DNA from: an uncultured Anaerolineales bacterium
Lineage (GTDB): Bacteria > Chloroflexota > Anaerolineae > UBA7937 > B3-Chlor
Direction: 5' to 3'
NCBI GenBank assembly: GCA_964577995.1
Contig: CAZOBP010000004.1
Span: 1-46,678 of the forward strand
Length of the DNA stretch: 46,678 nt
Shown in pieces: positions 28,609 through 46,544 of the stretch. Under the pieces are notes generated by a model. That model had not been told where the DNA came from. It did not search any database and saw only the letters and a list, made by a program, of their open reading frames with translations. Positions within the stretch are counted from its first letter, which is position 1, and each line of letters starts with the position of its first letter. Both the position numbers and the translations under genes were made by a program.

Positions 28609-29664
28609 CTAGACTACCTCAATGCTGCCAGAACCCTCCACGACCTCTCCCACGATCCAGTACTGCTGTTCCTCGTTGGAGAATAGGTCGGCCAGCCTAT
28701 CCGCGTCATCTGGAGCCACGCTGATCAGCAAGCCACCGGATGTCTCGGAAGTGAAGAGCAGCATCTGCAACTCGTCGGATATGCCCTTGGCGAAACGGAC
28801 GTGTGCCTCGTAGGCGTCCTTGTTGCACGACGCGCGCCCGGGAAACAACCAATCGTTGGCGTACTCAGTGGCCCCTTCGAGGAACGGCAGTTCGTCGAAG
28901 GGGAAGCGCATGCCAACCTCACTCAACTCAGCCACCTCGTAGGCGTGGCCCAGCAGCGCGAAGCCGGTGATGTCGGTCACGGCGTGGACATCGACCTGCT
29001 TCATCAGTTGTGCTGGCCTGCGACTGAGTGTCAGCATCTGCTCCACCGCGCCCCTCAGGTGCGCCTCTTGAGCGACTCCTCCCTTGGCCGCCGTAGTGAT
29101 GATACCCACACCGAGGGGTTTGGTCAGGAATAGCACGTCACCCGGCTGCGCTCCGACCTTGGTGGTGACCTCCTCTGGATGCACGAATCCCACCACCGCC
29201 AGACCGTACTTCGGCTCTTCGTCCTCCAGAGTATGTCCCCCGGCGATGACGCCACCCGCCTCTGCGACCTTCTCGGCCCCTCCCCTGAGGATCTCAGCCA
29301 CTATCTCCGTGGGCATGTCCTGCGGGAAGCCGCACACATTCAAGGCCAGCGCCACCTCTCCGCCCATGGCGTATACATCGCTCATGGCGTTGGCCGCAGC
29401 AACCGCCCCGAACTCGTAGGGATCGTCCACCACAGGGGTGAAGAAATCGGTGGTGAAGATGAGAGCCAGTTCCTCACTCAACCTGTAGATAGCCGCGTCG
29501 TCGCCCGTCTCTAATCCGACCAACAGATCCGGATAGTCCTCCGGGCGGAATATCTCTGCTAGAGGGCGCACGACCTGCGCCAGGGCCTCAGGGCCCATCT
29601 TGGACGCTCAACCAGCCGCCTTGGTCAGGCTCGTCAAGCGACTCCAGTTACGTTCAGCACTCAT
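28609..29664 (-). CDS. selD: Selenide, water dikinase (selenophosphate synthetase), selenocysteine-containing
   Basis: The track ORF starts at the internal MGPE. The real ATG is 29664 (GGAGGAAAGG RBS): MSAERNWSRLTSLTKAAG-UGA-ASKMGP. UGA (29608-29610) sits at the catalytic Cys/Sec position. Motifs DDAA, TTDFFTP, ANAMSDVYAMGG, GGHT, LTKPLG, DITGFALLGH, ETSGGLL. Confidence 0.95.
29565..29596 (-). promoter_or_regulatory. SECIS element of selD
   Basis: GGGCC-CTGA-GGCCC (loop 16 nt after UGA), then GGCGCA-GGTCG-TGCGCC (loop 32 nt after UGA). The GCA-GGUC apical motif resembles the E. coli fdhF SECIS. Confidence 0.75.
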
Positions 29665-36109: not shown

Positions 36110-36223
36110 GCCTCCAGTCCCTCCCCAGACTGCACTCAGAATGATGCCTCTCGACCGAGGCCCGGACGACCAGGCTGGGCGAGCGACAAGGACACCCGCC
36201 CAGCCCTGCCGCAGTCCCCATGC

Positions 36224-37733: not shown

Positions 37734-37886
37734 CTAGTAGTGGTCCTCCACCATCCACCGCGGCTGGGGAACGTAGACCCGGACCGATGTGAGTCTTAAG
37801 ACCTTAAGACGCCGCACGGCGTCCGGTCAAGTACCTCAACCGGTTCGCTGCCACAGATACCGCGAAACAGCACGAATGTCCATCAT
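37734..37886 (-). CDS. Putative leader peptide B with tandem in-frame UGA (Sec) codons: MMDIRAVSRYLWQRTG-U-GT-U-PDAVRRLKVLRLTSVRVYVPQPRWMVEDHY
   Basis: GAGGTG SD 6 nt before ATG, right after the DUF3343 stop; UGA at 37836-38 and 37827-29; SECIS-like hairpins downstream; TAG at 37734-36. Confidence 0.6.
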
Positions 37887-38134: not shown

Positions 38135-38729
38135 CTAGGGAGCGACTACGCTACCGGCTGCCAGCAACGCCTCGGCGATAGAGTACATGTTGGAAACCTG
38201 TCCCACGACTATCTTGTCCTTGAGTCCGAAATGACCAAGACAGGTACCACAGGCCAGTATCTCCACGTCCCTCTGCTCCAGAGCTTGCAGATCCTCCAGG
38301 ACAAGAGAACCCTCAACCGTTAGCTTCACACCGGCGGTGAGAAAGATGATGGTGTCGGGCAGCGGTCCACTTCGTGGAGCGTGTGGACAAAGGAGCGTAT
38401 CAAGATGCCGCCCAGTTCGTCGTCCCCGCGTCCCATGCCGTCACTGGGGACAAGCACCACGGTCAGTCCTGCCAATCCGCCGATCGTCCCGGCCCGGACC
38501 GTGCTCTTCTCCGATGGTTCGCCCACCTTGCTCATGTGTAGATCTGAGCCATCCTCCTTCTCTTCTACCTCCAAAGCGAAGCCTTCTCTGGCCGCCATGC
38601 ACGACACGTTGCTCTTGGCCGTCGCGTTGTCCACGATCGTCGTCACCTGATCGGTCTCGGCCATGGCCTTCCTGCTCTGGATCACCGGCTGAGGGCACGC
38701 CAGCCCCCACAATCCACTACGTCGCTCAC
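38135..38729 (-). pseudogene. yedF: Selenium-metabolism YedF (SirA-like + DsrE-like), with two 1-nt deletions
   Basis: Restored sequence MSDVVDC(R)GLACPQPVI...GRGDDELGGILIRSF...HEVD(P)LPDTIIFLTAGVKLTVEGS...ACGTCLGHF...VSNMYSI. Frameshifts at about 38708 and about 38364. Confidence 0.85.
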
Positions 38730-38781
38730 CAGTGCCTTCTGTCCGAGGGGCATTCCATGCCACGATCGGCCCCTCTCCCGT

Positions 38782-39936
38782 TCATCTCCCAACTGCGATC
38801 TCGCGCACCGCACTCACAGCGGCGTCTACCTCCTCCGCTGTGTTGAAGTAACTGAGTCCGAATCGCACCGTGCCCACCGGGAAGGTGCCGACGGTCCGAT
38901 GGGCGGCCGGCGCGCAGTGCAGTCCCACACGACTCAAAACCCCGTATCCTTCGTCGAGTTTGAGGCCCACCTCCGAGGGTTCCAGCCCCTCCACGCCGAA
39001 GGAAACCGTAGCTGTCTGCAACTCTGCGTCATGAGAACCATAGACCATCACGCCATGAATCTCCATCAATCCGGCTAGGAGTCTCCGCGTGAGATCCACC
39101 TCGTGTGCACGGATGGCCTCGACGCCCTGCTGCAAGACGAATTCCACACCCGCCCTGAGACCCGCCAGCCCCACGGTGTTCGGAGTCCCACTCTCGCACC
39201 GGTCTGGCAGGAATGCTGGTTGCTCCTCCCTCTCAGACCGGCTGCCTGTGCCCCCCCGCTTCACCGGCTCTATCTCATGCGCCTCTACGCGCTCTCCGAT
39301 GCAAAGCCCTCCTGTGCCCTGGGGGCCAAACAGCGCCTTATGGCCCGTGGAGGCCAGCAGATCTATGTTCATGGCCTCCATGTCGAGGGGGTACGCGCCC
39401 GCAGTCTGGGCGGCATCGACCAGCAGCAGCGTGTCATGCCGCCTGGCGATCTCCCCCACCTCCGCCACAGGCAGCACGGTGCCCACGACATTGGAGGCGT
39501 GGTTGAGGACGATCATCTTGGTCTCGGGCCTCAAGGCCGACTCTACGTCAGCAGGGTCAAGAAACCCCTCGGAGGAACAAGGCACGACGTGGATCTCCAC
39601 TATACCGGCTTCCTCCAATGCACGAAGCGGTCTCATGACCGAGTTGTGCTCCATGCTGCTGGTGATCACGTGATCGCCCGGCCGAAGTAGCCCGTGCAGG
39701 GCCAGGTTGAGGGCCTCGGTCGCGTTCGCCCCAAACACGATGCGGAGCGGATTCGCGACGTTGAAGAGGCGCGCCAGGACCTCGCGCGTCTCATACACGA
39801 TCCGGCCAGCCTCAATGGACATGCGGTGTGCAGAACGCCCCGGGTTTGCCCCGACCTCCGCCATGAAAAAGGACATAGCGTCGATGACAGCGGCGGGCTT
39901 CGGCCAGGAAGTAGCCGCATTGTCGAAGTAGATCAT
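38782..39936 (-). CDS. Aminotransferase class V, cysteine desulfurase/selenocysteine lyase-like protein of selenium clusters
   Basis: IYFDNAATSWPKP, NATEALN, MEHNSV, NHASNV, DAAQTAG, STGHKALFGPQGTG, ESGTPN, RVGLHCAP. Confidence 0.92.
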   Translation of the reverse strand: MIYFDNAATSWPKPAAVIDAMSFFMAEVGANPGRSAHRMSIEAGRIVYETREVLARLFNVANPLRIVFGANATEALNLALHGLLRPGDHVITSSMEHNSVMRPLRALEEAGIVEIHVVPCSSEGFLDPADVESALRPETKMIVLNHASNVVGTVLPVAEVGEIARRHDTLLLVDAAQTAGAYPLDMEAMNIDLLASTGHKALFGPQGTGGLCIGERVEAHEIEPVKRGGTGSRSEREEQPAFLPDRCESGTPNTVGLAGLRAGVEFVLQQGVEAIRAHEVDLTRRLLAGLMEIHGVMVYGSHDAELQTATVSFGVEGLEPSEVGLKLDEGYGVLSRVGLHCAPAAHRTVGTFPVGTVRFGLSYFNTAEEVDAAVSAVREIAVGR

Positions 39937-39958
39937 TTGTAACACCTCGTGGATGACG

Positions 39959-39980
39959 AAAAAGAGGGATTGATCCCTTC
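39959..39980 (-). terminator. Intrinsic terminator candidate (attenuator) just upstream of the desulfurase RBS
   Basis: G(A)AGGGA-TCAA-TCCCTC followed by TTTTT. The stem is short. Confidence 0.5.
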
Positions 39981-40053
39981 ATCTCCTACGATTGCGATCC
40001 AGCGTCGCCAGCAGAGCCCGCAACCCTAGTAGAGGAGGAACCAGGAGAGGAAT

Positions 40054-40218
40054 CTAGAGGAAACTCAACCCAGGTCGGCCTCCACTCGAGGAAGCAGGTC
40101 TCGGCGAACTGAGAAGGATATCAAACGAAGCCTGATGCATCCCGTGCATCGCGCCAAGGGCTTGGCTTCAGCCCATTCAGGTGAATGGCATCGAGCGACA
40201 CTTGTTCCAGCGCGTCAA
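40054..40218 (-). CDS. Putative leader peptide A with tandem in-frame UGA (Sec) codons: MTRWNKCRSMPFT-U-MG-U-SQALGAMHGMHQASFDILLSSPRPASSSGGRPGLSFL
   Basis: Perfect SD AAGGAGGTGA (40225-34) before TTG 40218; UGA at 40177-79 and 40168-70; SECIS-like hairpins; TAG at 40054-56. Confidence 0.55.
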
Positions 40219-40281
40219 CCCTGCTCACCTCCTTCCCCGACCTGAGTCTAACGCCCTCGGATGGGGCGGATTCCGGCTCTC

Positions 40282-40310
40282 ATTCTACGGCATTCTCACA
40301 GCGATGTCAA
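40282..40310 (-). promoter_or_regulatory. sigma70 promoter of the selenium operon
   Basis: TTGACA-17 nt-TAGAAT, about 345 nt upstream of the first large CDS. Confidence 0.8.
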
Positions 40311-40373: not shown

Positions 40374-41219
40374 TCATTTTCTCTCCACCGCGAGTTGTCC
40401 GACCGGCACCCTCCGGGAGTGTCGTGCGCTCTCACCGGGCTCATCCTGAAGCAATCTCCCCGCGCGCATCAGCCCACGTAGCGACACGCCCAGGATGTCC
40501 TCCACCAGTGCCGGGACCTCTTCTTTCTCCTCAAGCGGCACGTCTTCCTGTAGTCTCTCCACGAGTTCCAGGTAGTGTCCCAGTGCTGCCAGCCGGTCGC
40601 CCAGTGCAAGCAAAGAGTCCATGATCCCTCTATGTCCTGACTCGCAGTAGTAGTCCTGCGCCACGGCAAGTCTGTACAAGTCCAGAGCTTCCTCCCACAG
40701 GCCACGTCCAGCACGCATCCGTGCTATGGCCAGCACCGTACGCGTGTAGAGACGCCTCAGCCGCTCTCGGGCCGGTTCACACCATTCCGAGACACAGCCT
40801 TCGAGGTAGTCACCCTCATACAGCCCTATGGCTCTCTCGTACAGTTCCTCTGCTTCGCTATCTCGGGCGCTCTGTCCGGCCTGGATCACCAGGGACTCGA
40901 ATTGCGCGACATCGTAGGCCCACGGAGCACCGTCTCCAATCCGGTAGACATCATCCTCCCAGAGAACGGCCCCCCGTCCGACAGCCCGCCGACACCTGTA
41001 GAGAGTCGAGTGAAACAGTCCATCCCTACTCGCCTCATCACAGTCGGGGAACAGTCTCTCGCTAATGCGCTCCTTCGTCAGACCATCTGGATGATTCAAG
41101 AGAAGGAAGAAGAGTTCCGAAGCCCGTCTCGAGCCCCACTCCTTGCGGGTGACCTCGCGCGACCCGACCAACACGCGAGGATGACCGAGCGCCTTGGCCA
41201 CATGTGTCGCCGACTGCAT
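40374..41219 (-). CDS. Winged-helix + BTAD (SARP-like) transcriptional regulator
   Basis: ATG 41219 with AGGGAGAGG RBS; ELFFLLLNHPDGLTKERISERLFP...FHSTLYRCRRAVG; LYEGDYLEG, EWCEPARERL, ESGHRGIM. The longer track N-terminus is probably not translated. Confidence 0.82.
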   Translation of the reverse strand: MQSATHVAKALGHPRVLVGSREVTRKEWGSRRASELFFLLLNHPDGLTKERISERLFPDCDEASRDGLFHSTLYRCRRAVGRGAVLWEDDVYRIGDGAPWAYDVAQFESLVIQAGQSARDSEAEELYERAIGLYEGDYLEGCVSEWCEPARERLRRLYTRTVLAIARMRAGRGLWEEALDLYRLAVAQDYYCESGHRGIMDSLLALGDRLAALGHYLELVERLQEDVPLEEKEEVPALVEDILGVSLRGLMRAGRLLQDEPGESARHSRRVPVGQLAVERK

Positions 41220-41567
41220 CGCCCTCTCCCTTCTGCCCTGGTCCACCGCCCGTGTCAGAGACGACGTACAGCTTCGCGCCGACCCCTGACCCGGCCTGGC
41301 CAAAACTGCTGATATTATGGCATACTGTCTCAGCGTTGTCAAGGCCCTCCCCCCGCATCTAGTGTGGTTTCTGAAAGCGGCACGGCACATCTAGTGTACC
41401 ATGGGAAGCGTACAGGGGAGCCTAACAGCGGTGGTGAGGGGAAGAGTCACATCGTACGCGTGTCCGACGGCCCAGCAGGGCGACTGTCCACCACCCGCTT
41501 GCTGGAACGCGCAGCGTATGATACCATCCTCTTCGAGGTAACTCGCTCACGAAGAAGGAGGATACAG

Positions 41568-43326: not shown

Positions 43327-43941
43327 CTATAGATAGCCTAGAGCCTTCAGCCTGTCCTCCAGTATCTGCTCCTCCTCCTCGCTGTAGACCTCGTCCCCGC
43401 CCGCGGAGGTCCGCGGTACGTAGCCCAACACCTCCAACTTGGTCAAGATCTTCCCGACGCTCTCCTCGAGACTCTCAGTATCAGTGTGCACCACGACTTC
43501 CGCATTTAGCGGTTCCTCGTAGGGATCTGAGACCCCCGTGAAGCTCTTGATCTCTCCGGCGAGCGCCTTCTTGTACAGCCCCTTGACATCGCGCTCAATC
43601 AGTACCTCGAGAGGACAGCTACAATAGACCTCGACGAAGCGCCCGATGTCCTCGCGGATATAGTCTCGCACTGCTCGATAAGGCGAGATGGCAGAACCGA
43701 TGGCCGCGACGCCATTCCGAGTGAGGAGCTTGCACACGAAGCCGATCCGTTTGATGTTGATGTCCCGGTCTTCCTTGCTGAAACCCAACCCCTTGCTCAG
43801 ATTGGTGCGGACCACGTCTCCATCCAGCACCTCCACTTTCAGACCCCTGTCCCGGAGAATGCTCTCCACAGCACCGGCAAGCGTTGTCTTGCCTGCACCG
43901 GACATTCCCGTGAACCATAGGGTGAACCCTTGCTGTTCCAT
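43327..43941 (-). CDS. cysC: Adenylyl-sulfate kinase with C-terminal acidic/RLxxLGY tail
   Basis: [50 protein letters not shown]. Confidence 0.95.
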
Positions 43942-43952
43942 GAGATACTGTT

Positions 43953-46544
43953 CTAACCCTTTCTGTAGATTATCCTCTTGCCCTGCATGTCGGCAGGAAC
44001 CGGTAGGCCCATCGCATCAAGCACCGTGGGCGCCACGTCCATGAGTTGCAGACCATCTACTTCGCCTCTGCCCTGCTCGCGAGGATCGTACATGATGAAC
44101 ACACCGTGCTGCGCGTGGTTGGCGTCGTCGGGGCCGATGTCGTTCTCCCGTGTGTGAATGCGACCGTGTCCCATGCTGCCAACCGAACGCCACGCCAGGT
44201 TGCCGAAATAGATCAAGAGATCCGGCGGCACGTTGCGGCACTCGGCGTATACATCCTGCGGCTTGTAGACCACCGTGCCGATGTTCATTCCCTTCTCATC
44301 CGTGATCTGGGACAGCTTGTGCGCGATCTCGTCTCGGACTCGCTCGTAATCCTGAGACGGGGTCACTCCCCGGGGCTCTCTCCCCCGCACATTCAAGAAC
44401 AGACGCCCGTAGTACCCGCCAGCACCCCAGGCCATGGTCCGATCCCAGTCGATCTCCACCTTCTCCAGCGGGACGATGCCGCTGGGCTCGTCCTTGACGG
44501 CGAGGTAGCCCTCCTGTTTAAGCCATTCGTTGATGCAGATGCCGCCCTCCATGTGTCTCGCGCCATGGTCCGAAACGACCATCACGATCGTATCATCACC
44601 GATCAGGCTCAAGATCTCCCCGATCTCGCCATCCAGGTACTCGTAGTACTCCTCCACGACATTCTGGTAGGGAGAGCCTGGTTCATGCTTCGGGTGCTGA
44701 GGGTCGAAGTACTTCCAGAAGGCGTGGTGGATACGGTCCACGCCCATCTCCACGAGCATGAAGAAGTCCCACTCTTTCTCACGCAGCAGGTACTTCACGA
44801 CCTCGAACCGTTTCCTGGTCATCTCGTAGATCTGTTGCAGCAGATTGTCCTTCTCCTCAGTGCGGAAGTTCTCCACGTCAAGCATGTACTCCCCCACCAG
44901 GTCCTCGATCTCCTGCTTCAAGTCAGCCGGATAGGTATACTGGCTCTGGGTGCTGGGCGTGAGGAAGGAAGTGATGATGTAGCCGTTCGTCGGTTTCACC
45001 GGGTAGGTTTGAGGCACTCCCACCAGTGAGACTTTCCTTCCCGCCCGGGAGAGGATATCCCACACCGTGTCCTCCGCCACCGCGGTTGAGTTCGCAATCC
45101 TCATCCTGTCGTAGGAATGATCGGCTCGGTTTCGGAACCCATAGAATCCAAGGCGTCCGGGATCCTTGCTGGTCATCATGGACATCCAGGCGGGAACGGT
45201 GATCGGAGGGATGGTGCTCTCCAGCTTCCCGTAGGTACCTCCCTCCATCAGCTTCCTGAGATTGGGCAGGCTTTCCCGCCACTTTTCGAAGACCAGTTGC
45301 GGCGTCGCACAATCCAGCCCAATGACCACCACCTTTCGCTGGCCGTTCGAAAGCCCACTTCCAGTCGTGGCGCTCTCTCTTCTCTTGCGCATGCCTTCGA
45401 TGAGGATCTTGCTCACCTCGGGCCGCGTGAACTCCTCGGGAAGCATCTCGCCCCGACTCACTCGCTCCCTGACCTCCGTGCCGCTCATCACCACACGGTC
45501 CTCAGGAGAGTGGGGGCAGGTCTTCACGGAGACGATCCCACCGCACTTGCGGCAATAGAACATGTGCTCGAAGAGGAGCGGCGTGATGCCTATTTCATCC
45601 CGCTGGAAGTCTTCGAAGATCAACTGCGCATCATAGGTACCATAGTAGCCACCGACGCCGGCGTGATCGCGCCCCACGATGAAGTGAGTACAGCCGTAGT
45701 TCTTGCGCGCCAGGGCATGAAGGATCGCCTCGCGAGGGCCTGCGTAGCGCATGGCCGCCGGGAACACACCGAGCACGACTCTGTCAGGCGGATAGTAGTC
45801 GCGCAGCAAAGCCTGGTAGCTCTCCATGCGCACATCGGCCGGAATATCGTCAGACTTGGTCTCCCCTACCAGGGGGTGCAGCAAGAGACCATCACAGACC
45901 TCGAGCGCCGTCTTCTGGATCGCCTCGTGAGCCCGGTGGATCGGGTTGCGCGTCTGAAAAGCCACGACCCGGCGCCACCCCCGCTGGGCGAACATGCGGC
46001 GTGTCTGTGCCGGATCGTGTCGGAACTCGGCAAACGACTGGTCAGCCGGTCGACTGAGGAGGTGGATGTCGCCACCCAGAAGCACGTCACCCTGGGCATG
46101 CAGCCGCGCAACGCCGGGGTGTGCATCCTCTGTGGTGCGGTACACCAGTTCAGCCTCTCGCTCCTTGTCGTATTCGAACCGCTCGCTCACCTCCATGATG
46201 CCCAGGATGCGCTCTCCCTCCATCAGAGCGATCTCCTCGCCTTCGCGCAGACCGTCAGCCACGTCGCGAGACACCGGCAGGGTGATGGGGATACTCCACA
46301 CCACTCCGTTGCTAAGGCGCATGTCCTGGACCACACTTTCGTAGTCAGACTTGGTCATGAAGCCCGTGAGAGGGCTGAATGCTCCCACCGCGATCAGTTC
46401 CAGATCCGACACTCCTGTGGAACTGAGATTCACTCTCTTCAAGCTGCCCGCTCGCTCCAGCGCCGCCTCTCTCAAGACGCCACGTAGCACACGATCTACG
46501 AGCGTGCCACCATGGGGAGCGATGGCTATCCCATTCCTCGCCAT
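43953..46544 (-). CDS. sat: Sulfate adenylyltransferase (ATP sulfurylase) fused to an alkaline-phosphatase-superfamily phosphodiesterase domain
   Basis: N-part [49 protein letters not shown]; C-part [46 protein letters not shown]. Confidence 0.9.

Follow-up and report, generated by a model that had tools for sequence, protein, structure and literature searches.

What is the role of a short open reading frame (ORF) that is placed between a promoter and an operon of selenium genes, and that runs through two in-frame UGA codons before it reaches its stop? The question is raised by a stretch of 46,678 nucleotides (nt) of contig CAZOBP010000004.1 (assembly GCA_964577995.1) from an uncultured Anaerolineales bacterium (Chloroflexota), the whole of which was analysed and is referred to here as the window. 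The element concerned, leader A, is a minus-strand mini-ORF of 54 codons with two in-frame UGAs and associated hairpins (Table 1), and the genes found 3' of it encode a cysteine desulfurase, YedF, a small ORF, YedE and a TusA-like protein. From the comparison of homologous sequences, we consider that leader A is probably a translated regulatory leader ORF, which senses the capacity for selenocysteine (Sec) insertion and hence the selenium status. The promoter, Shine-Dalgarno (SD) sequence, TTG start, two UGAs, TAG stop and three hairpins that a preliminary description had reported for this locus are all present.

Conservation of the leader A reading frame

Taken singly, the leader A sequence of the window offers no signal above chance: terminator-like sites number 4 (as compared to 3.1 expected from shuffled sequence), and its fold is not unusually stable (z = -1.34). 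It is the conservation across homologues, and not the single-sequence signal, that is decisive for leader A. Within related loci (designated by L and a number) from metagenome-assembled genomes (MAGs) of Anaerolineae and other Chloroflexota, we identified leader A directly 5' of the desulfurase gene in 11 of the 80 species-level genome loci that encode this enzyme (protein identity at least 75%), while a metagenome scan with a loose pattern recovered 20 more copies, every one of them situated before the same desulfurase. The resulting 31 homologues (Anaerolineae genomes and metagenomes), 27 of which make up the alignment, all possess UGA1; the check that the preliminary description had named (i.e. 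that the UGA pair be conserved 5' of homologous desulfurase genes) was thereby passed. Within the alignment UGA1 is kept in 27 of 27 sequences and UGA2 in 26, the remaining one (L011) having a UGC (Sec-to-Cys) and a frame that stays open. Furthermore, a TTGACA-17-TATAAT promoter (or one with a single mismatch) is found 53-69 nt 5' of the leader start in approximately 25 homologues.

The conservation extends to the frame itself. The ORF is 165 nt long in 25 of the 27 sequences, the two exceptions measuring 162 or 159 nt (its indels are exclusively multiples of three); the spacer 3' of the stop is between 113 and 127 nt long and accommodates indels of every size. The start codon is TTG, GTG or ATG (or CTG/CTA followed by an ATG at codon 2), and the stop is occupied in one and the same column by TAG (22 sequences), TGA (3) or TAA (2), amid variable flanks. 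Besides the two TGAs, the only stop found in frame 0 is a TAA at codon 51 (in 2 sequences), which means that a stop after UGA2 is present in 2/27 sequences in frame 0 versus 9/27 and 20/27 in the other frames, and that the frame is open for the 37 codons between UGA2 and the fixed stop in 25/27 (in shuffled sequence it would be open with P ~0.39 per sequence). As frame, length, start and stop column are conserved together, these data indicate that ribosomes may read through both UGAs up to a fixed end point.

The peptide shows a different picture, as the ratio of non-synonymous to synonymous changes (pN/pS) in frame 0 (0.78) is near to those of the off-frames (0.89 and 0.83) and amounts to 1.02 for codons 31-54. 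In addition, a profile of the peptide alignment with U changed to C, compared to 5.8 billion protein clusters in search of Cys homologues, yielded no match at E<=0.01, and the sole Cys variant within the leader A family is the UGA2-to-UGC change of L011. With pN/pS near the off-frames and no protein homologues, the regulatory-leader-like character that had previously been ascribed to the peptide is borne out. Since the act and the extent of translation are conserved while the product is not, leader A is, on the evidence of sequence comparison, a translated regulatory leader and neither a selenoprotein nor an untranslated riboswitch.

A functional selenoprotein of 54 residues, with a U-x-x-U redox or selenium-carrier motif and acting as a partner of the desulfurase, YedF and DUF3343, would also be translated through both UGAs and would be at home in an operon concerned with selenium trafficking; it would moreover be consistent with the Sec-to-Cys change of one homologue and with the conserved N-terminal half (W..Y...PFTUxGUS.A.GAMHGLHQAS). 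We nevertheless regard it as unlikely, given that pN/pS is ~1 in the C-terminal 24 codons and overall does not count as below the off-frames, that the conserved half overlaps RNA helices that are covarying or invariant, and that neither a Cys-containing nor any other homologue appears among the 5.8 billion protein clusters. Three other leaders of the same architecture (see below), in which unrelated peptides are followed by regulatory structures, speak against it as well.

RNA structure and geometry of the candidate Sec codons

The organism decodes UGA as Sec, as the in-frame UGA of the window's own selD shows; the window contains no selA, selB or selC, and a tRNA search that covered it and 38 loci gave no selC. 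(ORF callers would truncate selD to ATG 29598.) In this in-genome control the UGA is followed by 11 nt, a hairpin of 5 base pairs (bp) with a 4-nt loop, 1 nt and the hairpin GGCGCA-GGUCG-UGCGCC; in leader A, 10 nt separate UGA1 from a first hairpin (hp1; 5 bp, 4-nt loop), and 2 nt separate hp1 from a second (hp2; 6 bp, 5-nt loop). The distance from the UGA to the second hairpin is 26 nt in selD, at UGA1 of leader A and at UGA1 of leader B (a further leader of the window), and because the selD control has this same distance, UGA1 of leader A is credible as a Sec codon. According to the bSECISearch-type rule, a Sec insertion sequence (SECIS) hairpin lies at a short, defined distance 3' of the UGA and has a G in its apical loop, and leader A fits this rule (hp1 loop GCCC at 10 nt, hp2 loop CGGGA at 26 nt). 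The likeness to the SECIS region of selD comprises the dimensions of both hairpins, the 26-nt distance and the stem top GCA...UGC; the differences reside in the loop (GGUCG in selD, CGGGA/C in hp2 of leader A), in the second UGA found 9 nt downstream in leader A, and in the leader A peptide, which is not conserved as a protein. Leaders A and B had been described as sharing no obvious sequence apart from the UxxU: by alignment they indeed lack sequence homology, but the 26-nt distance between UGA1 and hp2 is common to both.

With respect to its RNA structure, the leader A domain is paired in 88.5% of the alignment cells, as compared to 39-48% when the partners are slid. Helix P1 (RNAalifold), in which the SD region of the leader itself (40231-40220) pairs with CCTGCTTCCTC (97.6% of cells paired), has a mean duplex energy of -19.9 kcal/mol and displays one-sided changes only, P2 covaries at columns 110:121 (AU 13, GC 6, CG 2), and in helix P3 a GCUG that includes the U and G of UGA2 pairs with CAGY (95% paired; in the window this U and G pair with the CA of CAGT 40111-40108). 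A compensatory change is also present in hp1 (columns 133:140; A-U in 14 and G-C in 12 sequences), and the hp2 stem shows no variation in any of the 27 sequences, not even at third codon positions. The three hairpins previously listed are real; the list had overlooked P1, the conserved helix that sequesters the SD. A comparison of the window and ten related loci with the Rfam 15 covariance models gave no match at gathering score except for one tRNA, and permissive thresholds likewise yielded no family; the best match in the region, Guanidine-III (36141-36200, E=1.1), is at chance level and was rejected as unrelated.

A structured RNA that is never translated (a riboswitch or a protein-binding leader, with the UGA triplets structural or in contact with a ligand) would be in agreement with the conserved multi-helical domain (P1, P2, P3, P3a and P3b), with the excess of pairing over slid partners, with the near-invariant junction bases and with the sequestering of an SD-like sequence by P1. 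It is, however, distinctly unlikely, for it leaves unexplained the indels in multiples of three within variable stretches, a stop column that may hold TAG, TAA or TGA, start codons that alternate and the single stop-free frame; the failure to match Rfam and a hairpin geometry identical to that of the selD SECIS region argue against it too. Very unlikely, in our opinion, is a 13-codon peptide whose translation invariably terminates at UGA1, UGA2 being a second safeguard, with no role for Sec and any regulation by other means (e.g. by the SARP-family regulator). Tandem in-frame stops are common, the neighbouring genes normally stop at UGA, and the spacing of UGA2 to hp2 is unlike that of selD, all of which would suit such a peptide; on the other hand, the open frame, the length steps of three and the fixed second stop 37 codons further on would have no reason, nor would invariant hairpins at a selD-like distance, and the UGC replacement in L011 leaves the frame open. 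The last alternative, a SelB operator whose hairpins bind SelB·GTP·Sec-tRNA as a repressor complex without Sec insertion, is highly improbable even though SECIS-like hairpins are present in the 5' leader of selenium genes, as these lie ~190 nt 5' of the desulfurase ribosome-binding site and inside a frame-conserved ORF, exactly where the decoding of UGA1 would need them.

Table 1. Coordinates of leader A elements and of the other features discussed (positions in the window, unless a locus is named; minus-strand elements are written in reading direction)
Feature	Position	Strand	Basis or remark
Sigma-70-type promoter TTGACA-17-TAGAAT	TTGACA 40310-40305, TAGAAT 40287-40282	-	promoter scan 11/12
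Leader A SD AAGGAGGTGA	40234-40225	-	near-invariant AGGAGGTGAGCAGG in 27 sequences
Leader ORF A, 54 codons (TTG 40218-40216, TAG 40056-40054)	40054..40218	-	peptide MTRWNKCRSMPFT-U-MG-U-SQALGAMHGMHQAS...
UGA1, codon 14, candidate Sec codon	40179-40177	-	TGA in 27/27 aligned
UGA2, codon 17 (separated from UGA1 by ATG GGC)	40170-40168	-	TGA in 26/27; TGC (Cys) in L011
Hairpin P2 CCATTC-ACCT-GAATGG	40188-40173	-	G and A of UGA1 within 3' strand
Hairpin hp1 (P3a) GCCAA-GCCC-TTGGC	40166-40153	-	begins 10 nt after UGA1
Hairpin hp2 (P3b) GATGCA-CGGGA-TGCATC, candidate SelB-binding SECIS	40150-40134	-	stem invariant 27/27
Helix P1, 3' strand CCTGCTTCCTC, leader codons 41-44	40098-40088	-	RNAalifold consensus
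Pyrimidine tract TTCCTCTCCTG directly after leader A stop	40052-40042	-	pairs 10/11 with TAGGAGATGAA 39988-39978 in the window
Helix P5, enclosing a small hairpin	39974..40042; pyrimidine strand ~40042-40029, purine strand ~39990-39974	-	alifold and per-sequence folds
Terminator-like hairpin AGGGAT-CA-ATCCCT, then CTTTTTCGTC	39978-39965; T5 39963-39959	-	terminator scan
SclA-like cysteine desulfurase / Sec lyase gene, first in operon (SD GAGGTG 39948-39943, ATG 39936-39934)	38782..39948	-	profile match
Leader ORF B, 50 codons (ATG 37886 to TAG 37734), U-G-T-U	37734..37886	-	UGA 37838-37836, 37829-37827
Leader B intrinsic terminator TCCTCACCA...TGGTGAGGA + TTTT	37700-37661	-	canonical
selD with in-frame TGA 29610-29608 (…LTKAAG-U-ASK…)	28609..29664	-	TIGR00476 selD E=1.4e-103
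Leader C loci	L014 3432-3632, L029 4314-4505, L035 828-1017, 18 more		conserved leader
Leader D loci	L060 5497-5804, L062 4112-4426, L070 4356-4681, L073, L059, L061, L078, L055		

Predicted output of leader A and the other UGA leaders

As a mechanism for leader A as a translated sensor, we propose that transcription would start at the 40310-40282 promoter and that a ribosome would load on the strong leader SD during RNA synthesis, its fate at UGA1 (and UGA2) being set by SelB·GTP·Sec-tRNA(Sec) on the hairpin located 26 nt downstream. If this complex is available, Sec would be inserted, and the ribosome would unwind P1-P3 and reach the UAG (40056-40054); if it is absent, release factor 2 (RF2) would end translation after 13 residues, upon which the domain would fold and shut the leader's own SD. 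A ribosome at the stop would abut the base of helix P5, so that purines of the GGAGGGA type would be freed and the 39978-39965 hairpin could form. When selenium is plentiful, this hairpin (together with the U5 in the window) would lower read-through into the desulfurase-yedF-DUF3343-yedE operon, while early release at UGA would keep P5 intact and the operon on. Such a trp-like output, in which read-through to the stop lowers expression and release at UGA keeps the operon on, appears on modelled folds about as probable as its contrary; Rho-dependent polarity or SD masking could act instead, even with an inverted sign. The weakest steps, both of which we infer, are whether selenium lowers or raises expression and by what means it does so (intrinsic termination, SD masking or Rho).

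The competition between P5 and the terminator-like hairpin was assessed across the family. In the conserved helix P5, which excludes this hairpin, ~80% of the alignment cells are paired, 4 pairs show compensatory changes, and the mean energy is -16.6 kcal/mol (the window, at -13.1, is weaker). Counted from the first nucleotide of the leader A stop, P5 begins at a distance of 15 nt, i.e. at the edge of a terminating ribosome. When the ribosome is represented by a mask extending to +20 relative to the stop, 16/27 sequences form the terminator-like hairpin, versus 7/27 as free RNA. This hairpin (mean energy -10.6 kcal/mol across the family) consists of 5-6 bp and a U5 in the window, and most homologues have a hairpin of 4-7 bp without a U-tract. 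The terminator-like hairpin with U5 of the preliminary description is present in the window, but its U-tract is kept in the closest relatives only. Similarly, the 10/11 pairing put forward as an antiterminator is true of the window (one pair being G-U), but in the family as a whole TTCCTCTCCTG:TAGGAGATGAA performs no better than shuffled sequence (mean -9.5 versus -9.3 kcal/mol), and we rejected it. The attenuator that had been proposed to gate desulfurase, yedF and DUF3343 stands in kind, as a selenium-sensing tandem-UGA leader, but with an expression platform that was wrong or unproven.

Several observations weigh against leader A as a translated, Sec-sensing attenuator. As regards translation, much of the first half of the leader is conserved as RNA structure, which would fit an untranslated element too, and the substitutions lack a three-base periodicity, so that the coding case rests on the conservation of frame, start and stop and not on codon usage. 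As regards Sec insertion, UGA2 is only 17 nt away from hp2, unlike the 26 nt of selD, and efficient insertion at this codon is therefore uncertain. As regards the output, the U-tract after the 39978-39965 hairpin is confined to the window and the sequences nearest to it, most sequences retain helix P5 under the standard +14 footprint (constrained minimum-energy folds), in which leader A does not switch cleanly, and the accessibility of the desulfurase SD is ~0.31 in all five ribosome states (partition function); being constant across states, it leaves SD masking by ribosome position unsupported by equilibrium folding. Finally, all leader A sequences stem from uncultured organisms.

Within the window, leader B lies between the ORF in the DUF3343 position and yedE, starting just past the stop codon of that ORF, and is furnished with two SECIS-like hairpins (GACGCC-GUGC-GGCGUC and UCUUAA-GGUC-UUAAGA); homologues were found only in L001 and L002. 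Constrained folds contain its terminator solely when a ribosome occupies the stop; if the RNA is free, or the ribosome is at UGA1, an antiterminator made from the last ORF codons takes its place. The earlier suggestion that yedE is under double selenium control is in agreement with this, as yedE is preceded by leader B with its real terminator.

Two further families are present in other genomes and, like leader B, are independent analogues in favour of the proposed principle. Leader C, unrelated to leader A in sequence, was found upstream of yedE in 21 other Chloroflexota loci and is composed of an SD, a start, ...HRRT-UGA, a GCGCC-GGUU-GGCGC hairpin, an in-frame stop (TGA/TAA/TAG) and a strong, U-tract-bearing terminator, the 5' strand of which pairs with an antiterminator segment inside the ORF (96.6% paired, 8/11 pairs compensatory, 0/500 shuffles as good). 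It has no Rfam match; in L035 it is located directly before the desulfurase gene instead of yedE, in L015 and L026 it has two UGAs (U-x-U), and in L042 it occurs in two copies. Leader D, found before yedE in 8 loci of Desulfobacterota MAGs, begins with MGKLQTPLSLx-UGA (ATG GGN AAG CTC CAG ACN CCC CTT TCN CTN NNN TGA); the UGA is succeeded by two covarying hairpins, the second with an AGGUU-type loop, and by a purine-rich and then a pyrimidine-rich block before the yedE SD. As no obvious terminator is seen in the leader D loci, translational control is possible there.

We lean towards considering leaders A-D as one class, previously undescribed, of ribosome-mediated attenuators in which the regulatory codon would be a UGA read as selenocysteine. 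With comparable, moderate confidence, we suggest that all of its members (at least four unrelated families) combine one or more UGAs, SECIS-type hairpins and a conserved in-frame stop, placed before yedE or a gene for an SclA-like desulfurase. As a class, they would couple the expression of genes for selenium uptake and trafficking directly to the Sec-tRNA(Sec)/SelB capacity of the cell.

Genomic context and comparison with known systems

The desulfurase that opens the operon matches TIGR01977 with 477.8 bits (cutoff 377) and, below its cutoff, the SclA model NF040779 with 403.7 bits; YedE, a putative selenium transporter, matches TIGR04112 (481 bits), and the small ORF, devoid of a profile match itself, occupies the position in which relatives carry DUF3343. 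This gene set has been linked to selenium use by Lin et al. 2015 (PMC5322559). Between 40310 and yedE the promoter scan detected no further promoter-like site. Directly 5' of the leader A promoter, and in the same orientation, lies a gene for a SARP/BTAD-family regulator (40374-41390, minus strand), whose product may provide additional control of the operon. Synteny of this gene is seen in L001, L002, L004 and L006-L009; of the 11 genome loci with leader A, 7 keep the SARP-family gene upstream. The yedF gene (38135-38763, minus strand) has two 1-nt deletions in comparison with the intact 196-amino-acid genes of L001 and L008, around 38709/38708 (TGT[A]GGGGG) and 38367/38366 (GTGG[A]ACC), and represents a pseudogene or else a fault of the assembly; its start is probably GTG 38729, and the yedF of L002 carries a different 1-nt insertion. 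Moreover, 3 kb 5' of the selenium operon (43327-46544, minus strand) we observed genes for a sulfate adenylyltransferase with an extra fused C-terminal domain (863 amino acids) and an APS kinase, a pair that could be relevant to selenate activation. With regard to tRNAs, ARAGORN reported for L023 (7538-7630, plus strand) a tRNA of 93 nt that bears a GCA (Cys) anticodon and lies right 3' of the DUF3343 gene of a selenium operon. As tRNA-Sec-like molecules typically have this length, it could be a Cys-anticodon allo-tRNA. In L007 and L092, by comparison, the 93-nt 'tRNA-Pro(ggg)' calls run antisense within the desulfurase gene and are probably false.

In the literature (full text) we found no Sec-codon leader, attenuator or selenium riboswitch, although the coverage did not include all journals and a prior description is possible. 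A LysR-type regulator was all that could be proposed in the comparative work by which YedE, YedF and DUF3343 were defined (PMC5322559). Bacterial selenium sensing and the regulation of selenium uptake are largely an open field, in which leader A, if our interpretation is true, would make Sec insertion itself the read-out (i.e. a direct, protein-free selenium sensor). The cis-elements before yedE and sclA in many uncultured lineages would become testable, and they might find use as natural selenium-responsive switches for reporters. A word of caution for annotation also follows, as conserved mini-ORFs with a UGA and a hairpin may be regulators rather than new selenoproteins.

One of the two nearest published cases is that of Escherichia coli selAB, the 5' leader of which reportedly contains a SECIS-like element that binds SelB and represses translation, as Thanbichler and Böck are said to have found. 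Leader A resembles it in that genes of selenium metabolism are preceded by a leader whose SECIS-type hairpin would serve feedback; the E. coli element, however, is a protein-binding operator without UGA decoding, whereas leader A has two in-frame UGAs and a frame conserved beyond them, which points to actual Sec insertion.

The other is offered by Treponema primitia, in which selenium controls the transcription of fdhF(Sec) by translational coupling (Matson et al. 2013, PMC3892789): there too a ribosome reads selenium at a UGA/SECIS and the extension of the downstream transcript is altered. In that case the enzyme's own catalytic Sec codon supplies the UGA, and selenium raises the downstream transcript (PMC3892789), whereas leader A would be a dedicated, otherwise dispensable ORF with the opposite sign expected.

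With the attenuators of the trpL, hisL, pheL and thrL type, leader A shares a short translated ORF between promoter and operon, tandem codons for the amino acid that is sensed, and, as proposed here, the selection between alternative RNA structures by the position of the leading ribosome; in leaders B and C the likeness includes the last ORF codons or an in-ORF segment acting as antiterminator against a canonical terminator, a pair that is not conserved in leader A. The differences concern the codon, since the UGA of leader A needs SelB and a SECIS inside the leader, the consequence of failure (release by RF2 instead of stalling at a hungry codon), and the genes controlled, which take up or traffic an element and do not serve amino-acid synthesis. 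If leader A functions as we propose, classical attenuation would be extended to a recoded stop codon.

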